Source of the DNA: Spironucleus salmonicida
Taxonomy: Eukaryota
Length of the DNA: 64,000 nt
Direction of reading: 5' to 3'
Assembly (NCBI RefSeq): GCF_000497125.1
Contig: NC_090600.1
Location: 744,001 to 808,000 of the forward strand
Part shown: piece after piece, positions 29,341 to 58,871 of the stretch
Layout of the letters: each line of letters starts with the position of its first letter
Position numbering within the stretch: the stretch's first letter is position 1
Notes under the pieces: generated by a model
Told to the model about the DNA's origin: nothing
What the model saw: only the letters and a program-made list of their open reading frames with translations
The model's database searches: none
Position numbers and translations under genes: made by a program

Positions 29341-29763
29341 TCATCTCCGACCACCTACTAATAAATGAATAATTAATATAATGTTCAAGTATAAAAAACC
29401 ACTTGAATAAATAATTTAAAAATATGAGAATTAAGATTTCCTAATAATTCCTAAAAAACACTACATATACAAACTTACTAATAATGATATAAAGTATAAG
29501 TAGTTATCTCGAACGACACATGTTCCCAACCACCAGCAGTGATGATCAAACCCTTTTGTGCACATGTCGCAGTGGCGGCAGTGCACACCTAAGGGCTGGC
29601 TCAGGCATTGGGCTGAGCATGGGACTCTGTTGTCTTTAGCAATTTGCAAGATCTTCCAGATGGCGTAGGTAGCAGCCATAACTAACGGTATGGTGAACGG
29701 CTGGTTGTGCACGGATAGAATCTGTGCGAACAGAAGAGGACCAATGAGGTTGAACTGACGCAT
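29341..29763 (-). CDS. short DHHC palmitoyltransferase
   Basis: HCRHCDMCTKGFDHHCWWLGTCV DHHC-CRD motif. Confidence 0.85.
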
Positions 29764-31383
29764 TCTGGAGGAGTGTAGACTGTAGGGAGAATATACTTAT
29801 ATCTGACAGACACAGGTATAGTAACTACTCATTCACGGGAAATACTCCGCCCCAAACTCCTGCATCACCAGGAAGTTCTTCCGCAGCCCCTTTAGGCGGC
29901 TGACGATCTGGTTGTCCGTGCGCCCCTCCAGTAAGTCGGATATCTTTTTCCACGCACGGGGCTGGCAGCAGCGCATCGCGGCGACCAACTTCAGGTCCTC
30001 CTGGGCAGTCCACTTGCGGTTCGTCTTTTTCGGGTCTAGCACGCGCACCCAGTGCTGCACGATAGAGGGCATCTTGCGCTGCGCTCCCACAGTCTCGGCG
30101 TTGAATATCTGGGCAAGTTGTTTCCAGTTCTGGGGGCCGTACATTTGGATGAGTCTGACGAGCAGGTCGTCCTCGACCCTGGTCCATATGTTAGTAGAGC
30201 TCCTGCCCGCGCGCTTGGCTGGCTACGCCTCCAAGGCCGCTGGTTCGGGCTGAACGTCCACGCGGATGCTAGACCACTCTAGCGTATCATCGAGAAAGCT
30301 CTTGTACTGGGAAAGCGGAATCTCCAAAGTCGCATCAGGTAGCGCGCCGAGGCAGATTATATCGCTGTCTGAAACCAGGCTGAACATTGGGTGGAAAGGA
30401 TAATCGCAGAGATCACAATAAAGAGTGAGTTAGAGTAGATTATGTTTGTGGGTTTGTGGTTTAGTAAAAATAAAAGAAATGTAGTCGATAATGGGGTGCC
30501 TAATATACATGAATACTGCCTACCCTGGGGGCGAAATGGATAATATCGAACGTAAAAGCGATACGTCTCCGGATATGGTAACATTATTATATACTGATAT
30601 GCCGGTTTAACTTTGGGAATAGGAGTGGAAACAGTAAAATATACCAACGTACTTTTTGACGAATTATACTGAGTTTGATGAAGTTTCTAAAAGTTATTTA
30701 CAATCCGCTTAAGAATGTTTTGCGGTAACCTAATTATTATACTCCTACTTGCCCGTATTCGGCTTGCAGATTGACCAATTGGTCTACGGTTGCCCGATCC
30801 TCACGATTCTTAGTTCACCCTGAGACACGAAATCTCGAGTATTTACGTTCTACGCGCCCTAGTGAGACTGCCAGCGGGCTGCATCCGCCTTTGAGGTACG
30901 GGGCAGCATGACTCAGGATTCGCTGGTCGCATGCCTAGCTCTGTGCGGACGCCGAAATCATCCCAGCAGGGACAGGGTGTAATCCGACACAGCAACGCCA
31001 GGTGATTGTCGCAGGGTAAGCGCATCCTATGAATAGTCTCACTATCGCAGAGCGAAAGCACAGATACCCTGCTGCTGGTTGTTACGCATAAGTATGGAGG
31101 CAATACGACCTGGTGCCAGCTATCACCGAATAGATTGCCAGGCTCGCAGTGATCAAAGTTCCTTCAGAAGCTCAGTGTAGTCGTCCACGAGAAAATCGCA
31201 AATCTCCCTCTTCTAGTCCATCTGGTTCCTCTCGCTGAGGATCCCGATTACTCTGCCCCCGCTAGCTCTGGCCCCCTGCATGCCTGCCACGGTGTCCTCG
31301 AATACCACTGTCTCCTAGGGGTTCCCGCCGATCTGTCTCATACACTCCAAAAATACCTTGGGGCTAGGCTTGCTAGCACCTAC
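29543..31383 (+). repeat. direct segmental repeat D (copy 1; copy 2 at 52505-54345)
   Basis: Offset 22962; about 5 substitutions seen in ~1.84 kb. Confidence 0.95.
29833..30387 (-). CDS. R2R3 Myb-like DNA-binding protein (copy 1)
   Basis: WTRVEDDLL..YGPQNW; WTAQEDLKL..AWKKI..GRTDNQI. Confidence 0.9.
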
Positions 31384-31800
31384 TTCATCGCAAGTAACTA
31401 TTGTGACTTTTTCTTTAATGCTAGGAAATTGAGATATTATAGTATCTATAACAATTCTAGTAGTCGCAGTTGCAATTCCAAACTTTATATTCTTAGCTAT
31501 CAACTTTTCTATAAATTTATCTGCATTATGAATAAACTTAACATTCTTTAAATATGAAATGCTAATTTCAGCAAATTATTTAAAAACTTATTCTTTGGTT
31601 AGCGACAATTTATACTTTGAAATCAACAAATCACAAGCATCTAAAGCAGATAATCCTGGCATTCCAATAAAATGGAACTCTTTGTTATATTAAACGTTAA
31701 AAGATTTTACAAGTTCTTCATGAATAATATCCCAAGTGGCTAAAGAGTCGATCAAAGTTCCATCAAAATCAAAAACGTAATATTTTATATCTTCGAGCAT
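31153..31800 (-). CDS. HAD-superfamily phosphatase (paralogue 1)
   Basis: VFDFDGTLIDS, SKPSP, VFEDT..G motifs. Confidence 0.9.
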
Positions 31801-33214
31801 TTTTAAATTATTTATATAGAATTAGTTTAAATTATATAATATTTCTAAATATCGTAATTTTATATCAGAAATATTAAGCAACTAATTAAAAATTGAATTA
31901 TTTTAATATAATATACAAATATTTTTAACATATAATCCAAAAATGAAAAACTTTGTTAAATATATTATTTATTCTAAAAATGAAGTTCATATCCTAAAGA
32001 ATCAAGTGATAAATAAATATCGTCTGGTGATTAATTTTTTACGATTATTTGAAATTAAAAATAAATCATAATTTTTACTTGAATTTATTCCATTTTTTAG
32101 TTGGACATATTAAAAATTTCAAACGTATTTCTTAAATGTAGTAAAACCATAATATTTGTTACTATACTGTAAATTATTATAAATAATATTACCTGAGTAA
32201 TATCTATGCCATAAGATCTTAATGTTAGTTATCTCCAAAACAAGTTAATATATATGATTGCCAGATTAACATTTCATAATATTTAGAAACAAGAAATAGT
32301 AATCATTAATCTACTTCATGTTTAATATTGAAAATATTTTTTTGATTATAAAAATACCACAGCTATAAATTTTATGATTTATTAAATATAAATTTGTTTG
32401 ACGCATATGTGAATATACTATACTATATCCTTTTCCAATATTACTATTTTTATTCTTTAATAATGAATATTTATAAATCTTGCTTAAAATACGTTATTAA
32501 AATTTAAAATACCTTTTTTAATTAATGCTTAAATTAGTAATACACACAGTATATTTGTCCTACGGCTATTATGAATTCCATCTTTAGAAATAATAGACAT
32601 AGAAATAGCAAAATTAATAACCTGCACAGTTTGTTATTCAGCAACTCTACAAATTTATTTTTTAATAAATTCTTTAATGTACATAAAGTAATACAAATAC
32701 TTATTATTTTTAAATAATTTCAAATAACAACAAAACATTATATATAAATATGAATTAAAGTATAAAATTTAAAAGAAAATAAGTTCAGTCTATCAAACTT
32801 AACTAAAATATCTAAAATATACCAAATACTGTATTGAATGTCTTGTAAATATATAATAGTAATGTTAGCTTGTTTATAAATAGGTTATTATACTAAAAAT
32901 ATTAGTTATATTGAAGAACATCTAAATATATCATAAATTATTAATTTTTTACCATAAGTTTACGTATTTCTATATTAAATTATTATAAATAATTGATATA
33001 ATAATCTGTTAAAACACAATATTTATATTATATTCAATAAAAAACATAGATTTACTTTATAATCATATAAATCGTTAAAATGGTCGATATTGGTATATAA
33101 ACAATTTTTATTACAAGTATTTGATATAAAATTTTAAAGATTACATTCAAAAAAAAGAATTTATAATAGTATGCATGCTTATTATTATAGAGAAATTTTT
33201 ATTTACACAGCAAA

Positions 33215-34734
33215 ATGTTCGTTTTACGTTTTTCTTCTACATCTACTAACTGCTTTTCAACTAGTTCATATCTTGAAGGGGATGTTTAATAACGTATATT
33301 AACAGTATATTTGATACCATAAAGCGCAATTGATCCACTATATCTTGCTCTTAATACCTCAAATACCACTCTTGATCTAATTTATAAAAATTCTGAAACC
33401 CATGGATTACCAGTTTTTACATCGTAGCCATTTATATATATATATACCTAGAGTGGTTAATTATACTAATATTTCTATTTCTGAAGCATAAATAATCTAA
33501 TTATAGATATTATTGCTGCTGATTATATTGTCAGAATTGAAAAAGCTGCTGATTATTATCGAACTTTTAATATAATTAAATATCTAAAATCTGATGTGTT
33601 ATCTTGTTGGTCGAACCTAATTTTTCTTAATCTGTTATTCTTATGAAAGTGTAAATCACTTTTGAATTACAGCCAAATGATTGTTCTATTCCGGCAAATG
33701 CTTAACTTTTCCCCACGATTTTGTTTAATGATAATGGAACGATAATTATTTTATAAGAATTTTAATAAAGGAATGGTTTAGAAGATTATAAGTATCCTTA
33801 TGTCCATAATATGGTAAAATTCACTTGTTTGGTTTGTAGGGAAATAGAAGATTTGGGAAAAAGGGAAGAATGTTTATAGGTCATTGGTATCATGGTTAAT
33901 AGTTTAGAATATGTATTAGGTTTATATCTAATCTATTATTCTGGTTAAATGTGAACCGAAGTAATTTAAGATGCCGTCGTATATTAGGGAGAAGGGTCTA
34001 TTATGCGTGGGGATACCACAGGTATCTTATTCTATATTAATCCTCATTTATATATTTTATATCATGCGCTTTTTAATCATTATCCAAGCTGATAGATAGA
34101 AAAAATACAGTTAATATCAAATTATACATAATGATGAAAAGTGGAGATTTATCTTTGATATATTATGATAATTATTCCTTATATACATCCAGTAATATTT
34201 AATTCTTATAAAGTGCTGCAGGTATGAAACCTTACTGAAAGTATTCTTTGATTATCTATACATAATATATTCAGTATAATGAGACTAATGAAATTACAGG
34301 ATAGTTATTTACTACAATTAATACTGTTAAATAATGTATTTATCTTACTATATTAGATATAAGAGGTAGAAATGATATAACATTCTAATTACGAAGTGAT
34401 TTTAATGAAATTTGGTTGGACATAGATGAAGACATTTAATTATAGATAGTTAACGAAAAACTAGAAATTTTATTAAAGCAAGCATTCAAATTAAAAATTA
34501 TATATATAATAGGACAATTACTAAACTAAATAAGATATAAGAAGCATAATTAAAAATAATCATGGAGTTAAATTTACAGTTAGAGGGCCAAGTTTATACA
34601 TGGTTAGTATACAAATAAGTTTTGAAAATATTGGTGCATTCTGGATTATTTATCTAAGTTATGTAGTTGTTTATGCAATAGGTGGTATATTGACTATAAC
34701 AATTATTATACGGAAAGAAAACAAAACAGATTGA
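33215..34734 (+). pseudogene. frameshifted remnant of a signal-peptide/C-terminal-TM surface-protein gene
   Basis: MFVLRFSSTSTNCFS start; reading frame breaks at the (TA)n tract 33434-33446 and again downstream; terminal TM FWIIYLSYVVVYAIGGILTITIII. Confidence 0.4.
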
Positions 34735-35352
34735 TTTTTAATTATAATTTGTTTAAATTCATAGTTAATTGTTTAAAACTCCAATCTACTAAACAAATAT
34801 CGTTTTGTAATGTTGATATTTATAATGTATTCGTTTTTACAAATTAATGTTAATTGAAATAAATAGAACTGAGACTTTATAATATAAATGGCAATCAAAA
34901 TCTTAATATTAATCATTAAATTATACTTCTTTAATAATGCTATAAATAGGATTTAATAAATGATTCATAGTTAGCGTAATATAAGAACGAGTCAGTTTTT
35001 CATTCGAAGTTATAGTTAAATAACCTTATAAAATATAAAATAATTATATTAATAAATTTGAATTCTATACTTGCTGTCTAATTTAGTATTTTGTATGATA
35101 TAATTTTATTAATATATTACTTAATATTATTTATTATTATAAAAATTTACTAAATATTTTCATCGATTTCCTAATGGAATTAATATTAATAGTAGAAATT
35201 GAGATACATAGTCGTAAGAACATCAGGAAATATCATAGAAACCCAATAATATTAAATAATTTAAAATACTTAAATTCTATATGATATAAATGAGTTTTTA
35301 ACCAGTTATTATAAATTATGTGTCAAAAATTAATACTTGTTACAAATTAATA

Positions 35353-35904
35353 TCACTGGGTGCCCCTGTGGGAGACGTAGATACCGTCGAGGAACTTCCT
35401 GAGATCCTTGTGGCGGATCTTTACGGACTCGTGGATCTGGGCACAGAACATGGAGACGAGCTCCACGTCGTTACCGGTGATGATGAGCTCGTCCTTGATA
35501 TCCTTGGAGATTTCGATCTTGACACCAGGCTGGGCGGTGATCTTGCGGACCTCGGACTCACGAAGGAAGTTACGGATCTCGATGGTGGACGCGTTGTCGA
35601 CGATGTTGACGGAGATGGGGAAGTGGGCATAGGCAAGTCTCATCTTGTAGAGGTAGCCCTTGGTGACGCCGGTGATCAGGTTCTGGATGTGGGCAGTGAT
35701 GGTCCTGGGGAGGGACTTCTGCTGGCCCTTCGGGAACCAGACGGTGACGATGACTTCGGCGCCTACCATCTCAAGTTCGCAGGGGGTGTGGACGAAATCG
35801 CGGAAGAGGGTGCCGCGGGGACCGGTGATGGTCACCTTCTTGCCTACAAGCTCGCACTTGATGCCCTCGGGGATAGTGATAGTACAGACGTTCTTTAGTA
35901 CCAT
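35353..35904 (-). CDS. RPL9: 60S ribosomal protein L9 (uL6), copy 1
   Basis: YKMRLAYAHFPI, KDLRKFLDGIYVS; true start ATG GTA CTA. Confidence 0.95.
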   Translation of the reverse strand: MVLKNVCTITIPEGIKCELVGKKVTITGPRGTLFRDFVHTPCELEMVGAEVIVTVWFPKGQQKSLPRTITAHIQNLITGVTKGYLYKMRLAYAHFPISVNIVDNASTIEIRNFLRESEVRKITAQPGVKIEISKDIKDELIITGNDVELVSMFCAQIHESVKIRHKDLRKFLDGIYVSHRGTQ

Positions 35905-35997
35905 GACGAAGGAGTGGAAAATAAAAAGCAAAATAGGTGCGGTACTAAACAGCCAAGTTCGGAATTGAATTACCGGCCCCGCGCCTCCTGCCTGGGC

Positions 35998-36219
35998 TCA
36001 GGGCGGACGCTTTAGCAGGAGCGCTGCGAACTCCAAGCCGACGAGGTCCCCACCCCAGAGCAGCTCACCGTCGGCCGTTAGGTAGAACAGGGTGTTGTAC
36101 GGCAGGTAACCCACGTCGAACGTGAGGTCGCCGTACTCGTTGAGTGTGGACGGGGTGAGGTCGTGCGGGGTATGGATCTGGTACCGCTTGCCGAGCTGCT
36201 CGAACTGGATGGCGGCCAT
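35998..36219 (-). CDS. in-frame chimeric ORF: N-terminus of the 51276 gene fused to the C-terminus of the 36902 thioredoxin-like gene
   Basis: MAAIQFEQ...LTADGE|LLWGGDLVGLEFAALLLKRPP; junction at TGAG 36064-36067. Confidence 0.75.
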   Translation of the reverse strand: MAAIQFEQLGKRYQIHTPHDLTPSTLNEYGDLTFDVGYLPYNTLFYLTADGELLWGGDLVGLEFAALLLKRPP

Positions 36220-36271
36220 TCTGAAAATGCGGAGGAAAGTGACAGTCGCAAAAATGCGCAATCGTAAAACA

Positions 36272-36787
36272 TCACTGCATGAGCGTCCCCTTGCGCACAG
36301 CCTCGCCGTCGGCTCCGAGCTTGGTCGCGATCGCAACACCGAACTCGAGCGCGACGCCGGGGCCCTTGGCGCACACGTGCTTGTCGCCCACCACGACTCT
36401 GTCGTCCACGAAGGTGTTACCGGGGGCCTCACAACCGGGGTAGCCGCATACCTTGAGGCCCTTCCACACGCCCCACTTGGTGAGGACCTAGGGTGCCGCG
36501 CACATCGCGCAGACGAGCTTGCCCTTCTGGACGTAGGATTCCACGAGGGCCTTGACCTTCATATCGGCCTCGAGGTTGGCGAAGCCCATTCCGCCTGGAA
36601 TGATGATGGCGTCGGCGTCCACAACGGTGGTGCTGTCGGCGGTCATGATCATGCCCTGGTTACCGGTTACAGTCTTGGTGGTCGCGAAGAGGGTGACCTT
36701 CACGCCCGCGCGTCTGAGGATGTCGGCTGTACCGTAGGTCTCTATCTCCTCGCATCCCTCAAACATGTACAATAAGGCTGATGGCAT
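36272..36787 (-). CDS. DJ-1/PfpI/ThiJ family protein, copy 1
   Basis: EGCEEIE, DILRRAG, IIPGG, AMCAAPQ (TAG=Gln), GPG.A.EFG. Confidence 0.93.
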
Positions 36788-36901
36788 TTGTGGAGTGGCA
36801 GATTTATATCGTAGTAGTGGGGGCTAGAGCGGGGCCTCGGAAATCAAATCGTCGTACACCTCTGGGTATACGATGCGACTATATTCTACGCACCACTCCG
36901 A

Positions 36902-37297
36902 ATGGCAGTTCTCGAGGGGACATCCCTAGAATACCTCGGTCCGCCCCCGGAGGCCTTCGCGCCGCTGCTGGTCGTGCTCAGCTGCACCTTCGTGGCCGAC
37001 ACCCGCCTCCTTCCGCAGCGCCTGGCGGCCTTCCGCGCCCAGCACCCCGGCGTTGGCGTGCTATACCTGTTCCGGGAGCCCCGTTCGGCTGTGGAAACCG
37101 CCTTCCCCCGCCTCGACCTCTTTGGTGGTTCCTGCGTGGCCGTGGACCCGAGCAACACCGCCTTTGACGTCCTGCTCGGGCACACTGGGCAGCGACTGGT
37201 GCCGGCGTTTTGCCTCTTCGGCCGCACTGAGCTGCTCTGGGGTGGGGACCTCGTCGGCTTGGAGTTCGCAGCGCTCCTGCTAAAGCGTCCGCCCTGA
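36902..37297 (+). CDS. thioredoxin-fold (TlpA-like) protein lacking CxxC, copy 1
   Basis: Aligns by eye with the 43057 protein (VAVDPS, P.F.F, LLWGG/LIYSG); FVADT at the WCPPC position. Confidence 0.65.
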   Translation: MAVLEGTSLEYLGPPPEAFAPLLVVLSCTFVADTRLLPQRLAAFRAQHPGVGVLYLFREPRSAVETAFPRLDLFGGSCVAVDPSNTAFDVLLGHTGQRLVPAFCLFGRTELLWGGDLVGLEFAALLLKRPP

Positions 37298-37390
37298 GCC
37301 CAGGCAGGAGGCGCGGGGCCGGTAATTCAATTCCGAACTTGGCTGTTTAGTACCGCACCTATTTTGCTTTTTATTTTCCACTCCTTCGTC

Positions 37391-37942
37391 ATGGTACTAA
37401 AGAACGTCTGTACTATCACTATCCCCGAGGGCATCAAGTGCGAGCTTGTAGGCAAGAAGGTGACCATCACCGGTCCCCGCGGCACCCTCTTCCGCGATTT
37501 CGTCCACACCCCCTGCGAACTTGAGATGGTAGGCGCCGAAGTCATCGTCACCGTCTGGTTCCCGAAGGGCCAGCAGAAGTCCCTCCCCAGGACCATCACT
37601 GCCCACATCCAGAACCTGATCACCGGCGTCACCAAGGGCTACCTCTACAAGATGAGACTTGCCTATGCCCACTTCCCCATCTCCGTCAACATCGTCGACA
37701 ACGCGTCCACCATCGAGATCCGTAACTTCCTTCGTGAGTCCGAGGTCCGCAAGATCACCGCCCAGCCTGGTGTCAAGATCGAAATCTCCAAGGATATCAA
37801 GGACGAGCTCATCATCACCGGTAACGACGTGGAGCTCGTCTCCATGTTCTGTGCCCAGATCCACGAGTCCGTAAAGATCCGCCACAAGGATCTCAGGAAG
37901 TTCCTCGACGGTATCTACGTCTCCCACAGGGGCACCCAGTGA
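37391..37942 (+). CDS. RPL9: 60S ribosomal protein L9 (uL6), copy 2
   Basis: Identical to copy 1; TTTTCCACTCC at 37374-37384 upstream. Confidence 0.95.
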   Translation: MVLKNVCTITIPEGIKCELVGKKVTITGPRGTLFRDFVHTPCELEMVGAEVIVTVWFPKGQQKSLPRTITAHIQNLITGVTKGYLYKMRLAYAHFPISVNIVDNASTIEIRNFLRESEVRKITAQPGVKIEISKDIKDELIITGNDVELVSMFCAQIHESVKIRHKDLRKFLDGIYVSHRGTQ

Positions 37943-37962
37943 GTTTTATTTAACCGCTCCGC

Positions 37963-38463
37963 TCACTTGAAGATCCAATCTATGTTCTCGTCCGGAATGA
38001 AGTCCTCTTTGTCGTCGTTGAACTGGAACTGCGGGTCGTCCCTACCCTGCCTCGTGCTCCGCCTTCCCTTCAGCGAGTCCTGCCGGATCTGGTCCCAGTT
38101 CTTCATCTCGCATTTCGCCGACTCCGTGTGGCGCAGCGGCTTCTGCGACTTCTTCGTCGGCACCGACGCCATGCCGTCCAGCTCCCTCTGGAAGACGATT
38201 TGGTCATGGATGTTCTGGGAAAACTTTTGGATGTCGCTCTGGCTCTCGACAGTGTCATTCCCGGTATCGAAACTCTGAACGGTCATCTTCGGGGTCCGCG
38301 CTGACTGGTGATTCTGCGGCCTGAGCCGGTTTTTCATGCGCGTCGTATCCCGCGATACCAGGGACACGGACTCGGGTGCCACCACCGGAACTGGCCCCAC
38401 GGCGCGGAGCACTAGCGACTTAAACTAGTAAGTTTCATTTTGTAAGGCTTGTTATATGAACAT
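37963..38463 (-). CDS. hypothetical protein Z, variant with diverged N-terminus
   Basis: MFIQQALQNETYQF|KSLVLRAVG..., identical to the 49020 gene from KSLV onward. Confidence 0.6.
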
Positions 38464-38603
38464 TGTATATAATTATACTTCATTTGTCTCGTTTCCTAAA
38501 CAAATGATATTTTGTTAATTAATTTATTAAATAATATAATAATTTATTTAATTTTGATTATTAATAATAGATATTATAACTATTTGAAATAAATATAAAA
38601 TAA

Positions 38604-38876
38604 ATGAAAAAGATTAAGATAGACCGAAAGGTATTATCCTCAAAGAAAGCAAGTAAATACAGTCATCAAATCTCAATACCACATAAGATACCTATTAAAA
38701 AATTAAGTTAGTTAGTAGCTCCTTCTTTTTTAGGTAGACTATACAATCCATTGTTTAAAGTTAACGATAAATCATTAGAGTTTAGTCTTAGTGACAATAG
38801 AGATCTGGATTATGATGAATTATTAGCTTTAGAATTACATGGGATAGAAAGCTGTAATAGTATCAGTATGGATTGA
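38604..38876 (+). CDS. small hypothetical protein
   Basis: 90-aa open frame MKKIKIDRK... Confidence 0.45.
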
Positions 38877-39920
38877 ACGGCTGCATATTTGGTTGATCAA
38901 ATTTTATATGCTGCTAAAAACGACATATAATTAATAATTATAACATATTATAGAAGTGAGTTTTAGTTAATGGTTGGTTTTAGTTATTTAATTAACAATT
39001 ATACAAAAATAATATATGATAAAAAGTGGAAAACTATCAATTTCTATTAAAAATATCTCTTTAACTAATATTCGGATTGTTATTATAAAATTAATACTTT
39101 GGCTAAATATGATTTAAATTAGAATTGTCAAATAATTGATAGAAACTGACTCTAACTTCAAGTAGTATACCTAATATAATATGAATATACAATTATTATA
39201 TCAGTTTTTTAGATATTGTAAAATAATACTTATTTATAATTTTATTTGACATTATAAAATAGTACTAAAAATATTTATGCGTTGAATAATAGGATATATA
39301 CACTCCACAGTAAAAGTAAAAGGATTTACTGCAAAACATTTGATTTACGGTAATTTAAATTATTCTAAAGTTAAAATTTTGGGAATAGAGGTTGAATATA
39401 GTGATTTAATATGAAATTATTATAATAATTTACTCTTATTTCAATAATATAATAGAAACCCCTTTTACATATCAACTATAAAATATTGTATATTCATATA
39501 ATAGTATGTGTTTAAAAATAATATTATATATTAGTTGAAATATTTACTAATTTTGTTCGATATTTTTAATAATTAGGAGTTAACAATAATATGGAATGTT
39601 GTATAAATTAAGTAATAAAATATATTAATTATAAATAAATAACATCTAAGACTATGTTCTAATGTTATTCTAGTTTTCAAAGTATTTATTAATGTGATAT
39701 TGGAATGACAAGTATTGAATTCTTGTTTCTTGTTAGTTCAAATAATTTTATATAAGTGAAAATTTGTAACCTAATAAAATGATATTGAGGATTAATTTTG
39801 AATAAGATCAGTCTAAATTACAAATAACTATATGAATTCAGTCATATAAATAGGACTATAGCAGAGATTCGTTAAAATTTTCATATATTTGTTATTGTAT
39901 AGTTGATTCTTTCGATAATA

Positions 39921-40651: not shown

Positions 40652-41107
40652 TCAGGGGAAATAATCTCTATCAATATTAATCCATTTTTTGTTATTTTTC
40701 AAGACCTTAAGTCTGTTTATAATTTAATTATCTGTTCTACCCTCTAACTGTTTAGCCATATATTTCCACTATCTCCTAGGACTTTTTAATAATACGTTAA
40801 TTAACAAATTATCCTCATCACCTGACCATTTTCTCTGAGTTTTTTCTGGAGTTAAAACTCGGACCCAATGCTAAACAATGCTCGCCTGACCTCTTTACCG
40901 ATAATTTAATTGATTGAATTTTTATGAGATAAAACTCCAATTTTTGGCTCCATACTCTAAGATAAGAGTACTTAGTAAACTGTTCTCTTATTCGCACCAA
41001 ATATTTGATTTCGTTCTACCTTAAGGTGGTTGATTTATCTATAATTAAACTTAATAAATCAATGCTAAGATTTACTATTGTTGTATCAAGAAATCGTCCA
41101 ACAACAT
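40652..41107 (-). CDS. R2R3 Myb-like DNA-binding protein
   Basis: YGAKNW, SIVQHWVRVL, RKWSGDED, EGRTDNQI; ends YFP like the 29833 gene. Confidence 0.88.
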
Positions 41108-48107: not shown

Positions 48108-48618
48108 GGACGTTTGCCAAGATTCTAGCGTGCTCGACCGGATGCTCTGCCCAAGCTTCCCAAGAGCAGATCGAGCCCGAAGTTGCTTCTAGAGGGAAAC
48201 CGCGCAATAGGAGAGCTTGTCTCCCCTGGGCAAGGCCTTGACCGGCAGTCTAAGCAGTATATTCCGCACGCCAGCTTCCAAACCCTGGGCGCACGCGATC
48301 ACCGCAGCCATGGCTAATACCATAGACCAATTGAGAAATCCACCTAAATTAATAGAAAAACCACAATTTCCATTTAAAACAACCCAAGCAATATCTATCC
48401 ATACTCCCTGCCGATCGCCATTTCTCAAAACTCTCACTAACGTGATATTCATAAAATTTGTAAAATAAAAACTAAATAATTTTTTAATAAAAAGTTATTA
48501 TTATATATTATTAATATATAATTTATTTTTATTCATTATTATACATATTCCATATAATAAACCAATTTGGCTAAAACGCGTATTTTTACATTTTCACCAC
48601 AGCAAACCCAAACTCAAG

Positions 48619-49019: not shown

Positions 49020-49532
49020 ATGAAGCTCAATCCTACAATTTATCGAGGCACCTACCACGAGACATACGGCCCGAAGTCGCTAGTGCTCCGCGCCGTGGGG
49101 CCAGTTCCGGTGGTGGCACCCGAGTCCGTGTCCCTGGTATCGCGGGATACGACGCGCATGAAAAACCGGCTCAGGCCGCAGAATCACCAGTCAGCGCGGA
49201 CCCCGAAGATGACCGTTCAGAGTTTCGATACCGGGAATGACACTGTCGAGAGCCAGAGCGACATCCAAAAGTTTTCCCAGAACATCCATGACCAAATCGT
49301 CTTCCAGAGGGAGCTGGACGGCATGGCGTCGGTGCCGACGAAGAAGTCGCAGAAGCCGCTGCGCCACACGGAGTCGGCGAAATGCGAGATGAAGAACTGG
49401 GACCAGATCCGGCAGGACTCGCTGAAGGGAAGGCGGAGCACGAGGCAGGGTAGGGACGACCCGCAGTTCCAGTTCAACGACGACAAAGAGGACTTCATTC
49501 CGGACGAGAACATAGATTGGATCTTCAAGTGA
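49020..49532 (+). CDS. hypothetical protein Z (170 aa)
   Basis: ATG..AAGTGA; GC3-rich coding pattern. Confidence 0.75.
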   Translation: MKLNPTIYRGTYHETYGPKSLVLRAVGPVPVVAPESVSLVSRDTTRMKNRLRPQNHQSARTPKMTVQSFDTGNDTVESQSDIQKFSQNIHDQIVFQRELDGMASVPTKKSQKPLRHTESAKCEMKNWDQIRQDSLKGRRSTRQGRDDPQFQFNDDKEDFIPDENIDWIFK

Positions 49533-49552
49533 GCGGAGCGGTTAAATAAAAC

Positions 49553-50104
49553 TCACTGGGTGCCCCTGTGGGAGACGTAGATACCGTCGAGGAACTTCCT
49601 GAGATCCTTGTGGCGGATCTTTACGGACTCGTGGATCTGGGCACAGAACATGGAGACGAGCTCCACGTCGTTACCGGTGATGATGAGCTCGTCCTTGATA
49701 TCCTTGGAGATTTCGATCTTGACACCAGGCTGGGCGGTGATCTTGCGGACCTCGGACTCACGAAGGAAGTTACGGATCTCGATGGTGGACGCGTTGTCGA
49801 CGATGTTGACGGAGATGGGGAAGTGGGCATAGGCAAGTCTCATCTTGTAGAGGTAGCCCTTGGTGACGCCGGTGATCAGGTTCTGGATGTGGGCAGTGAT
49901 GGTCCTGGGGAGGGACTTCTGCTGGCCCTTCGGGAACCAGACGGTGACGATGACTTCGGCGCCTACCATCTCAAGTTCGCAGGGGGTGTGGACGAAATCG
50001 CGGAAGAGGGTGCCGCGGGGACCGGTGATGGTCACCTTCTTGCCTACAAGCTCGCACTTGATGCCCTCGGGGATAGTGATAGTACAGACGTTCTTTAGTA
50101 CCAT
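49553..50104 (-). CDS. RPL9: 60S ribosomal protein L9 (uL6), copy 3
   Basis: Identical to copies 1 and 2. Confidence 0.95.
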   Translation of the reverse strand: MVLKNVCTITIPEGIKCELVGKKVTITGPRGTLFRDFVHTPCELEMVGAEVIVTVWFPKGQQKSLPRTITAHIQNLITGVTKGYLYKMRLAYAHFPISVNIVDNASTIEIRNFLRESEVRKITAQPGVKIEISKDIKDELIITGNDVELVSMFCAQIHESVKIRHKDLRKFLDGIYVSHRGTQ

Positions 50105-50197
50105 GACGAAGGAGTGGAAAATAAAAAGCAAAATAGGTGCGGTACTAAACAGCCAAGTTCGGAATTGAATTACCGGCCCCGCGCCTCCTGCCTGGGC

Positions 50198-50593
50198 TCA
50201 GGGCGGACGCTTTAGCAGGAGCGCTGCGAACTCCAAGCCGACGAGGTCCCCACCCCAGAGCAGCTCAGTGCGGCCGAAGAGGCAAAACGCCGGCACCAGT
50301 CGCTGCCCAGTGTGCCCGAGCAGGACGTCAAAGGCGGTGTTGCTCGGGTCCACGGCCACGCAGGAACCACCAAAGAGGTCGAGGCGGGGGAAGGCGGTTT
50401 CCACAGCCGAACGGGGCTCCCGGAACAGGTATAGCACGCCAACGCCGGGGTGCTGGGCGCGGAAGGCCGCCAGGCGCTGCGGAAGGAGGCGGGTGTCGGC
50501 CACGAAGGTGCAGCTGAGCACGACCAGCAGCGGCGCGAAGGCCTCCGGGGGCGGACCGAGGTATTCTAGGGATGTCCCCTCGAGAACTGCCAT
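50198..50593 (-). CDS. thioredoxin-fold protein lacking CxxC, copy 2
   Basis: Identical to the 36902 gene. Confidence 0.65.
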   Translation of the reverse strand: MAVLEGTSLEYLGPPPEAFAPLLVVLSCTFVADTRLLPQRLAAFRAQHPGVGVLYLFREPRSAVETAFPRLDLFGGSCVAVDPSNTAFDVLLGHTGQRLVPAFCLFGRTELLWGGDLVGLEFAALLLKRPP

Positions 50594-50707
50594 TCGGAGT
50601 GGTGCGTAGAATATAGTCGCATCGTATACCCAGAGGTGTACGACGATTTGATTTCCGAGGCCCCGCTCTAGCCCCCACTACTACGATATAAATCTGCCAC
50701 TCCACAA

Positions 50708-51223
50708 ATGCCATCAGCCTTATTGTACATGTTTGAGGGATGCGAGGAGATAGAGACCTACGGTACAGCCGACATCCTCAGACGCGCGGGCGTGAAGGTC
50801 ACCCTCTTCGCGACCACCAAGACTGTAACCGGTAACCAGGGCATGATCATGACCGCCGACAGCACCACCGTTGTGGACGCCGACGCCATCATCATTCCAG
50901 GCGGAATGGGCTTCGCCAACCTCGAGGCCGATATGAAGGCCAAGGCCCTCGTGGAATCCTACGTCCAGAAGGGCAAGCTCGTCTGCGCGATGTGCGCGGC
51001 ACCCTAGGTCCTCACCAAGTGGGGCGTGTGGAAGGGCCTCAAGGTATGCGGCTACCCCGGTTGTGAGGCCCCCGGTAACACCTTCGTGGACGACAGAGTC
51101 GTGGTGGGCGACAAGCACGTGTGCGCCAAGGGCCCCGGCGTCGCGCTCGAGTTCGGTGTTGCGATCGCGACCAAGCTCGGAGCCGACGGCGAGGCTGTGC
51201 GCAAGGGGACGCTCATGCAGTGA
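50708..51223 (+). CDS. DJ-1/PfpI/ThiJ family protein, copy 2
   Basis: As copy 1, with one V/A difference. Confidence 0.93.
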
Positions 51224-51275
51224 TGTTTTACGATTGCGCATTTTTGCGACTGTCACTTTCCTCCGCATTTTCAGA

Positions 51276-51812
51276 ATGGCCGCCATCCAGTTCGAGCAGC
51301 TCGGCAAGCGGTACCAGATCCATACCCCGCACGACCTCACCCCGTCCACACTCAACGAGTACGGCGACCTCACGTTCGACGTGGGTTACCTGCCGTACAA
51401 CACCCTGTTCTACCTAACGGCCGACGGTGAGAGGCTGCAGGCCTTCAAAACCATAACCAACGCGTACTTCAGCGTGCGCTTCGAACTTTCCAATGGGGAC
51501 TACCACATAGACGACCACCGTGTCGTGCAGCTCGAGCCGTTCCACATGCGCCTGGAGGTCGAGCTGAGCGGCCAACGGCACCTGATCACTGACAGCACAT
51601 CTTTCCCGGTAACTCTGAACCAGATGTTCGAGGTATGCGAGGGCGATACTATCGACGTCTTTGTCAACAGCCACAAGGCCTGCAGCGTTCCCAGCCGTAT
51701 CTCTACCCTCACGGAGCTTACCTTCAGTGTCTTCGCACAGGACGGGCGTATCCATATCTCGGTTGACAAGGACGGCATTCCGCAGGCGGGAGGTGCCGTG
51801 CCTGTTGAGTGA
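51276..51812 (+). CDS. hypothetical protein Y (178 aa), intact parent of the chimera
   Basis: MAAIQFEQLGKRY...PVE; GAGTGA end. Confidence 0.75.
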   Translation: MAAIQFEQLGKRYQIHTPHDLTPSTLNEYGDLTFDVGYLPYNTLFYLTADGERLQAFKTITNAYFSVRFELSNGDYHIDDHRVVQLEPFHMRLEVELSGQRHLITDSTSFPVTLNQMFEVCEGDTIDVFVNSHKACSVPSRISTLTELTFSVFAQDGRIHISVDKDGIPQAGGAVPVE

Positions 51813-51951
51813 CGGCTAGGCATGCATCTATGTATTTCACTATAAAAACAGAAACCAAACTATTTATTAATTTATCTTATTAATGATATTATGAATTTAT
51901 TATAAATTATATTTATTAAATTATAATATAAATTGATTTATTTTTAATATA

Positions 51952-52368: not shown

Positions 52369-52399
52369 AAGTAATTTCCTTTTTATATTATCTAAATTA

Positions 52400-52725
52400 T
52401 TAATTAAAAATAACTACATATAACATAAATAGATATATAAAATAATTCTTGATAAATTGTTAAAAAAAATTATGAGTGAAAAATTTTCTAGATGCAGACA
52501 TTGGTGATCAAACCCTTTTGTGCACATGTCGCAGTGGCGGCAGTGCACACCTAAGGGCTGGCTCAGGCATTGGGCTGAGCATGGGACTCTGTTGTCTTTA
52601 GCAATTTGCAAGATCTTCCAGATGGCGTAGGTAGCAGCCATAACTAACGGTATGGTGAACGGCTGGTTGTGCACGGATAGAATCTGTGCGAACAGAAGAG
52701 GACCAATGAGGTTGAACTGACGCAT
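52400..52725 (-). pseudogene. degenerate DHHC paralogue (DHQC, decayed 3' half)
   Basis: Identical 5' half; DHHCWWLG becomes DHQCLHLE; remnant YMQ.FL; no TGA until inside the opposite-strand 51952 gene. Confidence 0.65.
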
Positions 52726-54345
52726 TCTGGAGGAGTGTAGACTGTAGGGAGAATATACTTATATCTGACAGACACAGGTATAGTAACTACTCATTCACGG
52801 GAAATACTCCGCCCCAAACTCCTGCATCACCAGGAAGTTCTTCCGCAGCCCCTTTAGGCGGCTGACGATCTGGTTGTCCGTGCGCCCCTCCAGTAAGTCG
52901 GATATCTTTTTCCACGCACGGGGCTGGCAGCAGCGCATCGCGGCGACCAACTTCAGGTCCTCCTGGGCAGTCCACTTGCGGTTCGTCTTTTTCGGGTCTA
53001 GCACGCGCACCCAGTGCTGCACGATAGAGGGCATCTTGCGCTGCGCTCCCACAGTCTCGGCGTTGAATATCTGGGCAAGTTGTTTCCAGTTCTGGGGGCC
53101 GTACATTTGGATGAGTCTGACGAGCAGGTCGTCCTCGACCCTGGTCCATATGTTAGTAGAGCTCCTGCCCGCGCGCTTGGCTGGCTACGCCTCCAAGGCC
53201 GCTGGTTCGGGCTGAACGTCCACGCGGATGCTAGACCACTCTAGCGTATCATCGAGAAAGCTCTTGTACTGGGAAAGCGGAATCTCCAAAGTCGCATCAG
53301 GTAGCGCGCCGAGGCAGATTATATCGCTGTCTGAAACCAGGCTGAACATTGGGTGGAAAGGCTAATCGCAGAGATTACAATAAAGAGTGAGTTAGAGTAG
53401 ATTATGTTTGTTGGTTTGTGGTTTAGTAAAAATAAAAGAAATGTAGTCGATAATGGGGTGCCTAATATACATGAATACTGCCTACCCTGGGGGCGAAATG
53501 GATAATATCGAACGTAAAAGCGATACGTCTCCGGATATGGTAACATTATTATATACTGATATGCCGGTTTAACTTTGGGAATAGGAGTGGAAACAGTAAA
53601 ATATACCAACGTACTTTTTGACGAATTATACTGAGTTTGATGAAGTTTCTAAAAGTTATTTACAATCCGCTTAAGAATGTTTTGCGGTAACCTAATTATT
53701 ATACTCCTACTTGCCCGTATTCGGCTTGCAGATTGACCAATTGGTCTACGGTTGCCCGATCCTCACGATTCTTAGTTCACCCTGAGACACGAAATCTCGA
53801 GTATTTAAGTTCTACGCGCCCTAGTGAGACTGCCAGCGGGCTGCATCCGCCTTTGAGGTACGGGGCAGCATGACTCAGGATTCGCTGGTCGCATGCCTAG
53901 CTCTGTGCGGACGCCGAAATCATCCCAGCAGGGACAGGGTGTAATCCGACACAGCAACGCCAGGTGATTGTCGCAGGGTAAGCGCATCCTATGAATAGTC
54001 TCACTATCGCAGAGCGAAAGCACAGATACCCTGCTGCTGGTTGTTACGCATAAGTATGGAGGCAATACGACCTGGTGCCAGCTATCACCGAATAGATTGC
54101 CAGGCTCGCAGTGATCAAAGTTCCTTCAGAAGCTCAGTGTAGTCGTCCACGAGAAAATCGCAAATCTCCCTCTTCTAGTCCATCTGGTTCCTCTCGCTGA
54201 GGATCCCGATTACTCTGCCCCCGCTAGCTCTGGCCCCCTGCATGCCTGCCACGGTGTCCTCGAATACCACTGTCTCCTAGGGGTTCCCACCGATCTGTCT
54301 CATACACTCCAAAAATACCTTGGGGCTAGGCTTGCTAGCACCTAC
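52505..54345 (+). repeat. direct segmental repeat D' (copy 2)
   Basis: Matches 29543-31383. Confidence 0.95.
52795..53349 (-). CDS. R2R3 Myb-like DNA-binding protein (copy 2)
   Basis: Identical to 29833-30387. Confidence 0.9.
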
Positions 54346-54762
54346 ATCTTCGCAAGTAACTATAGTGATATTCTAGCGTATATCAGGATAGCGGCTTAAA
54401 AATGACTCTATTACTGCATGAGGACAAGCTGTGGCTAACCCAACTGGAATTTTCTTTTCTATTAACATTCTAAGAAAATTATCACCATTATTTATAAACT
54501 CTACCTATTAAAACAACTTAATACAATTTGAAATAAATATATCTTTGACTTCTTCCACGCTAGCTGTAAGATTATACTTTGTAATAATAAATTTAGAACA
54601 ATCTGGTGTTGACAATCCCTAAATATTATCTAAATGTTGTTTTTCAAGGTAAGGTATATTATAATTTTCAAATACCATACCGTGTACTTTTTCCCAAACT
54701 GGTATTGAGTTGATAAGTGTGCCATCAAAATCAAAAACAAAATATTTCATATCTTCAAGCAT
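54115..54762 (-). CDS. HAD-superfamily phosphatase (paralogue 2)
   Basis: MLEDMKYFVFDFDGTLINS; C-terminal third identical to paralogue 1. Confidence 0.9.
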
Positions 54763-55794: not shown

Positions 55795-56258
55795 TGTTGG
55801 CTCATTTATAAATATTATCTATATTTTTGAGATTAAACAGTAGACTAGATTTAAGATTCCGCTAATTTATGTACATACAGTTAATAATTATTATTAAAGG
55901 AATTACTATGGTATTAATTTACTTTAAATATAATGGGTGTGCATATATATTAATTTTTTATATTCATGAATTGTTTAATAATAATTTTCTAAAGTTGAAT
56001 TACAGTCATAGAATTTTACAGAATATCCTTGTAATTGATATAGGCCATATAACCATGGCTGCGGTGATCGCGTGCGCCCAGGGTTTGGAAGCTGGCGTGC
56101 GGAATATACTGCTTAGACTGCCGGTCAAGGCCTTGCCCAGGGGAGACAAGCTCTCCTATTGCGCGGTTTCCCTCTAGAAGCAACTTCGGGCTCGATCTGC
56201 TCTTGGGAAGCTTGGGCAGAGCATCCGGTCGAGCACGCTAGAATCTTGGCAAACGTCC

Positions 56259-57179
56259 TCACTCGCACGCCGAGAATACCTGTCTGGGCGCCACCAGTCC
56301 CTTCGCGCACACGTAGTAGTCGATGTTGGCCGCGTCCACCCAGTCCGGGCCGAACGTGTCGCGGCTGCCCTCCTCCTCACTGACCTGACCCGCCTCGATC
56401 ACGAAGATGACCTTCCTCGCCATGGTCCGAAAGAGTTCGCAGGCCGCCCCGGTACCGGCGTCGGTCACGCAGCTGCCGTTCCGGAACACGAAGCGCGGGG
56501 CCGAGATCAGCCCAAAGCAACGCCCGGCCAGGTGGGGTATCATATCGAGCTCGACGGGCACTGCCTTCGCCCCCAGCTGGCCCAGGTATGTGACCGCCGA
56601 CGCCGTAATGTCCTCGTTGCAGCGGAGGACGAACACGAGGTCGCACTGACTGGCGGCCTGCAGCACCGCGGGGCTATTGCCCACCACCATGGTGCACCTC
56701 ACACCGGTGAGCAGCTGTACCAGCGCCTGCCCCGCTTGCTGGGCGTCTATCGCGGAGGCCTGCAGCTGGTACCGCGCGTGGGACACCGCCTGGTCCACGA
56801 TGGGCCTGGATAGCTGCCGGGGCTTCTGCTGGCTCAAACTCGTCTGGAGCAGGAAGTCGCACTTGAAGCTGTCCGGGTTCTGCACGGCGTCGTACAGCGA
56901 GGCGTTGACGCGGCGGGTGATGTTGGAGATCAGCCGGTTGGTCGGGAGGATCTGCTGGAGCATGCACGCCGCCTCGAGCAGGAAGCTGTAGAGGCACAGG
57001 GGCTGCGCGCACTGGTACTGGCCGAGCGCCTGCGCGAAGAACTGCAGGTACACCCCCGCGAAGTCGTAGGGCACAAAGCTCTTCTGCTCTAGCTGGTCCA
57101 CCAGGCCCTGGTACAGTTGGTTCAGGACCGGGAACTCCGAGAAGGAGTCGAACTGGTCGCAGAGGGCGCAGGTTGCCAT
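56259..57179 (-). CDS. eIF2B beta-like subunit, copy 2
   Basis: Identical to the 47187 gene. Confidence 0.65.
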   Translation of the reverse strand: MATCALCDQFDSFSEFPVLNQLYQGLVDQLEQKSFVPYDFAGVYLQFFAQALGQYQCAQPLCLYSFLLEAACMLQQILPTNRLISNITRRVNASLYDAVQNPDSFKCDFLLQTSLSQQKPRQLSRPIVDQAVSHARYQLQASAIDAQQAGQALVQLLTGVRCTMVVGNSPAVLQAASQCDLVFVLRCNEDITASAVTYLGQLGAKAVPVELDMIPHLAGRCFGLISAPRFVFRNGSCVTDAGTGAACELFRTMARKVIFVIEAGQVSEEEGSRDTFGPDWVDAANIDYYVCAKGLVAPRQVFSACE

Positions 57180-57505
57180 TCGGAGCGGAGCGGAAAGCAA
57201 ATGGGCCCGGAAACCTTGCGGCCAGGTCCACACGTCAGACGCCGCTGCACGAGTGTATCGTGGCCGAGCGAAGGTATACAATTAAACGACGTGATACCCG
57301 AAACAATACCCAAGGGGCGGGACTGGAAATATACAATTGAGAGCGAATATAAACCACCAGGTATACGAAATAATCCGGTTTAAAAAATACCAGTCAAAGT
57401 ATACACTGTATTGTAATATGCATAATAATGATATCTACAAAGTGAAACGTGGAATATAGCCAGAATACTGGTTCTATTAGGGTCCGAGTTTCCAATTCGT
57501 AGAAA

Positions 57506-57964
57506 ATGGAGTACTCGTTCAACATCGTGACCTCGTTCATTTCGGTGGACCCCAACGAGCAGTTCAACGACGACCACCTGTCCCGGCTCTCGGACATCTC
57601 TATCCTGTCGATGCACAAGTAGCACTCGGCGAAGTCCGTCAGGCAGTACGTGTTCAACTCCAAGATCGACTCCATGCTCCTGGAGCTCGCGCAGGTCCAC
57701 GAGAAGCAGAGCTGGGTTGAGATCACGGCGGTCCTCAACCAAACGTTCGCACTCAGCATCCGCACGAGCCAGTACTACCAGCGGTATTTCCGTGTGCTCA
57801 AGTAAGGGCTCAAGAAGGGGAGGTGGACCAAGGACGAGGACAAGAAGTTGATCCAGGCGTACGAAAAGTACGGTCAGAAGTGGAAGCTGATCGCCAACGA
57901 GGTCGGTGGAAGGACCGACACCCAGATTAGGTATAGGCTGACGAAGCTAGATGTGGTTAAGTGA
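57506..57964 (+). CDS. Myb-like DNA-binding protein (second subtype, copy 2)
   Basis: Identical to the 46402 gene. Confidence 0.9.
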
Positions 57965-58871
57965 GCTAGCTCATATTTTTTTCGGTTCACACGGCGGGAA
58001 GCTGTGCCGCACAGAAGGTCGCAGCAGAGGATGCTGGTTAACCCAACCTCGGAGGGGCTGATGGCGACCGCCATCGTAGTTGCTCGGCCAGCATCTCCAG
58101 CCGCAGAAGGTGGGAGCTGTGCGGTCAGTCCAATTGAACCCCTAGAATCGCGCCGGTATTAACTTGACAATTATGCGAATAAGACAAAGCATGGCTGCCG
58201 GTGTGCAGAATGGGCGTTCGAAAGCCAGGAGACGGGAAACCAATACGGCGGTTGGTGCAATGCTCGAGGGTGAGCGGCATACTCTCTTTCAAGATATCGG
58301 TATTTTATCGTGGGTAGCACAATGTACCAGTCGTGGGCAGGGCCAGAAGTTCAGGGAGGTGACATTTTACGTTCCAGTATTAATTTTTCAAATTATATTA
58401 TAAACTAATACTGGAGTCCATGCAGGTGGATGGGGGATTGCGAGCCACCTGGCGGTATGCCTGCTCTCAGTGATAGTCGGGATTATAAAACATAAAATAA
58501 TATTTATATATTAAAATAGTTATTTAGTAATTGTTCAACTCTATTTCATAAGCCATACTGGATAATAGTATTTAAAAATAACACATAAAAATAAATCTAC
58601 AATTTGGTAGAATTATTTAATTTAATAATAAAACTATATACGAAAAAGATAGTTTTATATTTTTGAAAACTTCCTTTATTATGCTATATGATACTTATAT
58701 AACCATTTAAAATGGTTATACTATTGTATTTATTTAACTTTTAATCATTTATTTATAGTATTCTCGTAAAATAAATAGAACATGTAAATTTAGTATAAAC
58801 TGTATAAAAATCTATTTAATAAAAGTTTCATATACACGTAACAATTTACATTTATATAATTATCTGTAAAA

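Follow-up and report, generated by a model that had tools for sequence, protein, structure and literature searches.

Why does the base composition of the Spironucleus salmonicida genome change so abruptly, and what sets the places where it changes? The accessible text of a 2007 survey of this diplomonad (PMC1805757) describes sharp shifts from about 30% to almost 70% GC, affecting third codon positions (GC3) and non-coding DNA alike, as a "peculiar phenomenon" unexplained by lateral transfer, mutation or selection. We analyzed 64,000 nucleotides of contig NC_090600.1 (RefSeq assembly GCF_000497125.1, positions 744,001 to 808,000 of the forward strand), hereafter called the window. An original prediction held that GC content jumps here, between positions 29543 and 58490, at the ends of gene conversion tracts, as a footprint of GC-biased gene conversion (gBGC). 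We found that GC steps and breakpoints of identity between repeat copies coincide, also in the middle of open reading frames (ORFs), and that homologous repair favouring G/C may have produced them.

Self-BLAST and a repeat search of the 64-kb window identified four repeat pairs, named R1 to R4. R1, R2 and R4 are near identical (1.9–3.1 kb, 99.4–100% identity), and R3 is an older pair:

29534-31406 = 52495-54368: R1, direct, 99.4% identity
36064-38421 = 51431-49074: R2, inverted, 99.96% identity, with a third copy of its uL6 segment at 35344-36077
45863-48316 = 58502-56050: R4, inverted, 99.8% identity
44405-45545 = 60008-58868: R3, inverted orientation of the coordinates, 90% identity

Interior mismatches between copies number five in R1, one in R2 (over 2,358 bp) and none in R4 (interior 45876-48313, compared with copy b), and the differences concentrate at the extreme edges. 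The repeats, 14,082 bp in all, have 56.1% GC, whereas the other 49,918 bp of the window have 33.1%. We used a two-state GC hidden Markov model (HMM) to call GC-rich blocks; its GC state takes up 92% of the repeat bases, against 27.6% of the rest. The GC-rich blocks at the repeats lie at 29508-31391, 35354-38419, 45885-48314, 49044-51825, 52494-54447 and 56043-58481.

The GC step at a repeat end was defined as the GC of the 200 bp inside minus that of the 200 bp outside, and 12 ends were compared:

R1: copy a, 0.25 and 0.30; copy b, 0.32 and 0.24
R2: copy A, 0.33 and 0.45; copy B, 0.31 (left) and 0.02 (right)
R4: copy a, 0.27 and 0.33; copy b, 0.38 and 0.26

At 11 of the 12 ends, the step was 0.24–0.45, a size matched or exceeded in each case by fewer than 5% of window positions, and its local maximum lay 3–32 bp from the identity breakpoint. 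Across the breakpoints, alignments drop from 100% to about 30% identity and from about 60% to 15–30% GC over a few bases. Identity breakpoints and GC steps coincide, in agreement with the original prediction. Because the step is also present in the copy with the intact DHHC gene, the coincidence is not merely that of GC-rich DNA pasted into an AT-rich site. Shifts between about 20–30% and about 55–70% GC occur over a few kb, in gene-dense and gene-poor DNA alike. Two intervals of about 21% GC, 31801-35343 and 38464-39920, border GC-rich repeat blocks and hold no Pfam-supported gene, which is unusual against the approximately 70% coding reported for the S. salmonicida genome in the accessible text on the 2014 assembly.

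ORFs were read with TAR as glutamine (Gln). This code yields 169 ORFs of at least 120 amino acids (aa) in the window, compared with 21 under the standard code, and the long ORFs bearing Pfam domains read through uninterrupted. R1 and the genes that it cuts are arranged as follows:

29341-29832, minus strand: intact DHHC palmitoyltransferase (Pfam DHHC, E 1.5e-13), with a GC switch at the DHHC motif, which is the end of R1
29534-31406: R1 copy a, with the N-terminal 97 codons of the DHHC gene, a Myb gene, about 765 bp without coding sign and the C-terminal 84 codons of a HAD gene
31153-31800, minus strand: HAD hydrolase 1 (Pfam HAD_2, E 1.8e-26), in which GC and identity switch after codon 131
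52495-54368: R1 copy b, with a truncated DHHC part whose motif reads DHQC and whose frame then enters AT-rich DNA
54115-54762, minus strand: HAD hydrolase 2, an old paralogue of HAD hydrolase 1

Over their first 131 codons, the two HAD genes are 56% identical in nucleotides and 40% in amino acids; of 50 residues that are identical here, only 27 have the same third base, close to saturation. Over the last 84 codons, nucleotide identity is 98%. GC at the first, second and third codon positions rises from 0.34–0.40, 0.25–0.26 and 0.21 (the last in both copies) in the unshared part to 0.54–0.55, 0.38 and 0.65–0.67 in the shared part, and the fraction of GARP residues (G, A, R and P) from 0.11–0.14 to 0.24. 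A protein search found the tract common only to the two HADs of the window, with no wider network of HAD copies; the nearest named homologues were from Hexamita inflata (39%) and from another contig of S. salmonicida (34%). Together with the TAR code, these homologues point to a diplomonad of the Hexamitinae. The DHHC gene switches internally as well: its 97 shared codons have a GC3 of 0.58, the unshared remainder one of 0.27. The partial DHHC copy (52502-52794, minus strand) is probably, judging from its reading frame, a pseudogene fragment made at the R1 breakpoint. In a 170-aa ORF at one end of R2 (49020-49532 and 37963-38463), the switch falls about 54 bp inside the 5' end.

R4 adjoins a second set of old paralogues, a pair of surface-protein-like genes:

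43952-45541, minus strand: surface-protein-like copy 1, with a core (about 44530-45295) 100% identical to copy 2
45863-48316: R4 copy a, with about 517 bp without coding sign, a Myb gene (46402-46860, minus strand), an AT-richer divergent promoter region, a 306-aa ORF (47187-48107, plus strand) and then 209 bp without coding sign
56050-58502: R4 copy b, inverted
58868-60452, plus strand: surface-protein-like copy 2, adjoining R4 copy b in an order that repeats that of copy 1 and R4 copy a

Outside the core, the two surface-protein-like genes are 65–70% identical in their 5' part and 55–82% in their 3' part. The same order beside R4 shows that some 4.5 kb had been duplicated earlier and that R4 and the core were then homogenised separately inside this duplicate. 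Searched against solved structures, the 306-aa ORF gave no match at E of 1 or below.

In the HAD and surface-protein-like genes, saturated paralogy stands directly beside identical tracts, which argues that the tracts are maintained by conversion. Identical tracts parted by diverged DNA are impossible from a single recent duplication, so an old duplicate must have been homogenised at least twice. Old paralogous flanks mark R1 and R4 as conversion tracts, and R2 has no such flanks. A search for older homology beyond the repeat ends detected it only past the HAD end of R1; the R2 flanks, the left flank of R1 and the right flank of R4 gave low-complexity or chance-level matches only.

R2 contains several complete genes in a partly rearranged order:

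35344-38421: R2 copy A, rearranged, with uL6 (35353-35904, minus strand), a truncated 73-aa ORF (35998-36219, minus strand), DJ-1/PfpI (36272-36787, minus strand), a 131-aa ORF (36902-37297, plus strand), a second uL6 (37391-37942, plus strand) and the 3' part of the 170-aa ORF
49074-51436: R2 copy B, with the 170-aa ORF (49020-49532, plus strand), uL6 (49553-50104, minus strand), the 131-aa ORF, DJ-1 and the start of a 178-aa ORF

Copy B is likely the source, and copy A a rearranged derivative in which the 178-aa ORF is truncated. The uL6 (L9) segment is present in three near-identical copies (35344-36077, 37219-37951 and 49544-50276). The first of these is an inverted duplicate that abuts and truncates the 178-aa ORF, of which the 73-aa stub remains. 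Among solved structures, uL6 best matches a eukaryotic cytoplasmic uL6 chain. The entry concerned, 7pwg in the Protein Data Bank, is reportedly a Giardia ribosome. The entry codes are absent from the text of PMC10123126.

The original prediction had named four intergenic intervals inside the repeats as GC-rich, and all of them are: 30650-31150, 45880-46400, 46860-47180 and 48108-48313 have 49.3%, 51.8%, 43.9% and 59.2% GC, respectively. Its description of single-copy intergenic DNA as nearly pure A/T went too far, since presumed non-coding single-copy DNA has a mean of 21.9% GC and a maximum of 39.5% (98 windows of 200 bp). Segments without coding sign have 44.5–58.9% GC inside the repeats and 17–29% outside. 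Three in-repeat stretches were examined:

30750-31152: R1 stretch without coding sign, 54.3% GC, fold z-scores +0.29 and +0.50
45885-46401: R4 stretch without coding sign, 52.4% GC, fold z-scores −0.07 and −0.25
48108-48316: stretch without coding sign at the R4 end, 58.9% GC, downstream of the 306-aa ORF

These in-repeat stretches were checked for coding sequence and for structured RNA, the two findings that would have undercut the prediction, and neither emerged. The stretches have no 3-base periodicity; a Pfam search (E of 1 or below) of the 3 + 10 ORFs within them returned no match above chance; and all six frames of 30388-31152 and 45885-46401 contain stop codons. One Minor_capsid_1 line among these ORFs (E 0.079) was below the cut-off of its family and was treated as chance. 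No Rfam family was found in the stretches, the sole Rfam match in the window being a tRNA (13921-13993), and 30750-31152 and 45885-46401 fold no better than shuffled sequence (z −0.25 to +0.50). Small genes might still be hidden in them, as discussed below. Upstream of gene starts within the repeats there are AT-richer dips of 30–35% GC (30388-30749 and 46887-47039), which fit the AT-rich stretches near the start codon that serve as diplomonad promoters according to the accessible text of PMC1805757.

Composition also shifts at the level of codons and amino acids. Gln is encoded by TAR and CAR in a ratio of 285/113 among AT-state codons and 49/257 among GC-state codons, a shift to CAR; since the two states are themselves defined by GC, this test is partly circular. 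The original prediction had also contrasted a single-copy Myb gene with a duplicated Myb in R1:

40652-41209, minus strand: single-copy Myb, 29% GC, GC3 of 0.31

The contrast itself stands, as the duplicated gene at 29833 has 58% GC. The term "close paralogue" was overstated, because the two proteins are only 39% identical (70 of 180 aligned residues). At identical residues, the third base is G or C at 51 of 64 codons in the gene at 29833 and 19 of 64 in that at 40652; at differing residues, the former has 28 GARP and 22 FYMINK (F, Y, M, I, N and K) residues, the latter 12 and 45. The shift is thus a joint one of apparently non-coding DNA, of every codon position, of the amino acids (more GARP and fewer FYMINK residues) and of the Gln codons. 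Codon selection does not explain it, and a fixation or mutation bias does.

GC3 also differs between duplicated and single-copy genes. It is 0.77–0.91 in genes duplicated in the window, 0.66–0.67 in single-copy genes that are GC-rich throughout (proteasome alpha, TFIIB-like and PUF-like) and 0.49 in genes with only an internal island (Vps-like and aminotransferase). The higher GC3 of duplicated genes would suit a dose-response, in which more or longer-lasting exchange raises GC; the identical core of the surface-protein-like pair and the GC-rich DNA past the R2 end, both described below, speak against it or are neutral. GC-rich DNA without a repeat partner in the window includes the following:

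971-3165, plus strand: the largest unpartnered GC-rich block, 57% GC, inside an 836-aa ORF (677-3187)
3993-4610: proteasome alpha, GC-rich throughout
5937-6655, plus strand: island in the Vps-like gene, 54.7% GC
7900-9159: TFIIB-like gene, GC-rich throughout
20383-21120, minus strand: ThiF-family gene (Pfam E 1.4e-45), 54% GC, GC block 20341-21079, no window repeat
21589-23577: PUF-like gene, GC-rich throughout

As GC islands that are single-copy in the window, these amount to 971-3165, 4005-4617, 5937-6655, 7890-9224, 20341-21079 and 21594-23610, to which 12977-13805 and 19268-20025 are added. The whole GC-rich single-copy genes (proteasome alpha, TFIIB-like, ThiF and PUF-like) are separated by AT-rich spacers. 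The 836-aa ORF (plus strand) is coding-like, with GC of 0.57, 0.36 and 0.67 at the three codon positions, and starts as an (IY)n stretch of low complexity. No Pfam domain was found in it, and the protein search missed even the ORF itself and is hence uninformative on its paralogues. In the spacer 3' of it (3166-3457) lies an AT-rich, degenerate tandem and self-complementary array with units 75–86% identical by self-BLAST. Islands inside single-copy genes occur in the Vps-like gene, the aminotransferase gene and the N-terminal third of a cysteine-rich membrane protein. This last gene (18123-20039, minus strand) encodes an EGF-like protein whose C-terminal transmembrane segment is followed by a short tail, and is GC-rich only at its N-terminal third (19268-20025). 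The tRNA (13921-13993, minus strand) is a tRNA-Arg (CCG), the sole RNA gene detected, with its own 71-bp GC-rich HMM block; it lies just upstream of the aminotransferase gene, within the longest reading of that ORF. At the other extreme, a 584-aa coiled-coil-like ORF (24845-26599, minus strand) has 84 TAA/TAG and 21 CAA/CAG Gln codons, an extreme AT-state usage. Pfam-supported genes in the window include protein kinase, TTL, aminotransferase, HAD, DHHC, Myb, DJ-1, uL6, proteasome alpha, ThiF, DeoC and EF-hand genes.

Taking these results together, we propose that the GC-rich tracts are footprints of homologous recombinational repair favouring G/C, that is, gBGC in the broad sense, acting against strongly AT-biased mutation; we regard the case for this as evenly balanced. 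We infer that the repair is GC-biased and that conversion events were repeated rather than single. Between 29.5 and 58.5 kb, the exchanging partners would be mainly the paralogous copies of the window, most clearly R1 and R4. In old duplications (HAD-Myb-DHHC, and the surface protein plus the Myb/306-aa block), the flanks would have diverged to saturation while the cores were still being homogenised, and each round of heteroduplex repair would fix G or C (S) over A or T (W) at mismatches. Exchange could not spread outwards into diverged flanks, so these would confine it and the tract edges would sharpen over time, until composition switched over a few bp, even mid-ORF. Promoter-proximal DNA would stay AT-richer, presumably by selection. 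For the GC islands of single-copy genes, the partners in this process would have to be allelic or lie outside the window, and allelic copies may have served as such.

Several observations weigh against this proposal. Of the 26,738 HMM GC-state bases, 13,783 lie outside any window repeat, mostly between 1 and 24.3 kb. A relaxed blastn search of 1–29 kb against the window found no partner for them, only one 36-bp low-complexity match, and tblastx gave nothing above noise. For the Vps-like protein, a search of the protein collection found its own entry and no paralogue, although fragments or unannotated copies would escape such a search. Since the window holds GC-rich single-copy genes, exchange between window copies cannot be the only driver. 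The twelfth repeat end (51436, right end of R2 copy B) has no GC step (0.02): the adjacent 51437-51825 (plus strand), 389 bp past the R2 end and comprising the rest of the 178-aa ORF (51276-51812), has 57.6% GC. This part of the ORF is single-copy in the window, and the end is the only one at which the GC and identity switches are uncoupled. With no older flank homology and a single mismatch, R2 may have arisen by recent duplication of DNA that was GC-rich beforehand, in which case its GC/identity coincidences would be largely trivial.

The surface-protein-like genes add to these objections. Their 771-bp core, although 100% identical, has 33.9% GC, about that of ordinary coding DNA. The original prediction was right that the effect is not uniform, but "modestly GC-enriched" does not describe a core that is essentially not enriched. 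Conversion alone thus does not bring GC; many rounds would be required for enrichment if the proposal is right. The 3' third of copy 1 (43953-44422), for its part, has 40–50% GC versus 20–38% in copy 2 and no window partner. In the 3' part, 124 sites have S in copy 1 where copy 2 has W, compared with 43 of the reverse kind, and the exchange partner of this third may be a family member outside the window. Inside the tracts, GC3 (0.8–0.9) exceeds non-coding GC (0.5–0.6), so extra forces act on one of the two classes. The roughly six interior mismatches between copies are all W/S, but they are unpolarised and too few for a substitution spectrum, and fixation bias is inseparable here from GC-biased mutagenic repair. 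The non-coding status of the in-repeat stretches rests on negative evidence, for which the absence of 3-base periodicity is a weak criterion. The ThiF gene, with a phase range of only 0.04–0.22, shows this test to be unreliable, and stop counts, Pfam, Rfam and fold z-scores were therefore used beside it; a gene that is coding yet barely periodic means that the stretches could hold small lineage-specific genes. The causal part of the original prediction, gBGC driven by recombination between copies, therefore holds up in part: the match of GC tracts to identical tracts, the old paralogy and the shift of all site classes speak for it, and the unpartnered GC-rich DNA, R2 and the 771-bp tract do not.

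Much of this could be explained the other way round. Sharp-edged GC islands might arise first, through allelic hotspots or a regional bias, and then be duplicated or converted, or attract ectopic exchange, which would make recombination between copies a consequence of GC richness and not its cause. This order of events would accommodate the half of the GC-state DNA that has no window repeat, including whole single-copy housekeeping genes and intragenic islands, as well as the GC-rich 389 bp past R2 copy B and the lack of GC in the fresh 771-bp conversion tract. It also agrees with the random-level identity of the flanks of R2, the R1 left end and the R4 right end, which resemble duplication junctions, and with the difference of only 0–0.3% between copies. 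However, tract ends are island ends, to within 32 bp, even in donor-like copies, including the switch in the intact DHHC gene and both ends of each R4 copy, so that the added assumption is needed that exchange tracts stop at island edges. Nor would it lead one to expect the higher GC3 of window-duplicated genes (0.77–0.91, versus 0.49–0.67 in GC-rich or island-bearing single-copy genes) or, going by the accessible text of PMC9509377, the higher GC of duplicated regions throughout the S. salmonicida genome. We consider this order of events the main rival, possible but less probable than GC-favouring repair.

The remaining explanations fare much worse. Selection on codon usage, mRNA stability or expression of certain genes such as uL6 and DJ-1 would suit the likely high expression of several tract genes (uL6 has three copies) and a GC3 of 0.8–0.9 that exceeds the non-coding GC of the tracts; the mid-gene switches in HAD and DHHC, the 44–59% GC of DNA without coding sign and the shift in amino-acid content make it very improbable. 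Slightly less credible still is a lateral or transposable origin, with cassettes retaining a donor composition. Sharp edges, several copies and insertion in AT-rich, gene-poor DNA are what such cassettes would leave, but block boundaries fall within host genes (HAD and DHHC) whose reading frame runs on into AT-rich DNA, no transposase, integrase or reverse-transcriptase domain was found among the 70 ORFs scanned, and the best structural match of uL6 is a eukaryotic cytoplasmic chain; the accessible text of the 2007 survey (PMC1805757) adds that most high-GC3 genes are not lateral transfers. Mis-assembly or over-polishing of repeat copies might produce the 0–1 mismatches over 2.4 kb in R4 and R2. 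We give it as little weight, since a GC-rich composition is independent of copy number and the copies stand in distinct, specific contexts with diverged paralogous flanks. Read coverage of the two largest duplicated S. salmonicida regions equals that of their neighbours in the accessible text of PMC9509377, a check that excludes the present locus.

How does the GC-favouring repair that we propose compare with known systems? Mammalian histone and Hsp70 genes are gBGC multigene families. Ribosomal DNA (rDNA) reportedly served Escobar, Glemin and Galtier in 2011 as an example of GC enrichment under concerted evolution. As in these, the concerted sequences of the window are GC-richer than their single-copy relatives, and non-coding DNA, synonymous sites and amino acids are all affected. 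The contrast in the window (about 20% to 55–65% GC) is unusually large and sharp to the base pair, it arises although the copies number just two or three and the organism is not known to undergo meiosis, and the bias of repair is deduced here. The recombination-linked isochores and hotspots of vertebrates and yeast likewise have a regional GC that affects GC3 and flanks, with GC3 above non-coding GC; the blocks of the window are 0.6–3 kb and step-like, not tens to hundreds of kb, and their partners include ectopic copies. The AT-rich isochores of fungal repeat-induced point mutation share a bimodal GC tied to repeats, with sharp edges, but the polarity is reversed: the fungal repeats become AT-rich by C-to-T mutation, while those of the window are GC-rich.

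The phenomenon and its link to duplication are already in print, and we judge the window to be an incremental example of a known process and a modest advance. The published S. salmonicida genome has nine chromosomes, 14.7 Mb, 33.5% GC and four annotated introns (PMC9509377; 2014 assembly). In the accessible text of PMC9509377 (2022), duplicated regions (at least 2 kb and at least 95% identity) account for 19.2% of genomic DNA, GC is higher near cysteine-rich protein genes and chromosome ends, and gene conversion is suggested. That of a 2010 study (PMC2874811) states that, where GC3 at synonymous sites (GC3s) exceeds 75% in an S. salmonicida gene, GC3s is lower in the S. barkhanus orthologue, the sole indirect support for an excess of W-to-S substitutions inside the tracts. 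The window shares with this published mosaic an AT-rich genome, TAR as Gln, shifts from about 30% to 60–70% GC that involve GC3 and non-coding DNA together, and GC-richer duplicated DNA (means of 44.7% in duplicated regions and 30.7% in the rest in print; 56.1% and 33.1% in the window). That GC steps fall at identity breakpoints, to base-pair scale and inside ORFs, is not shown in the accessible text of those papers; this, the old-paralogue context and the explicit gBGC reading are what the window adds. In the openly available literature, main texts only, we did not find gBGC named as a cause in Spironucleus, and for diplomonads we found it invoked for the rRNA genes of Giardia and for no others.

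If the tracts are gBGC footprints, a compositional oddity of S. salmonicida that was hard to explain in the first surveys would be accounted for. Recombinational repair, rather than selection or lateral transfer, would shape codon usage, Gln codons and amino acids in part of the genes, and codon-usage and lateral-transfer screens based on GC3 in diplomonads would be confounded. The finding also bears on the homogenisation of surface-protein and other gene families, and on whether binucleate, apparently asexual parasites recombine. A wider and more tentative extension is that every GC island in the genome, those of single-copy genes included, records homologous repair, whether ectopic or between allelic genome copies in the two nuclei. 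Were this true, the GC landscape would be a recombination history at base-pair resolution in a protist without observed sex, the repair bias would be strong enough to raise GC from about 20% to about 60%, alter protein composition and turn the stop-derived Gln codons of the lineage from TAR back to CAR, and the GC heterogeneity left unexplained in 2007 and 2010 would be resolved.

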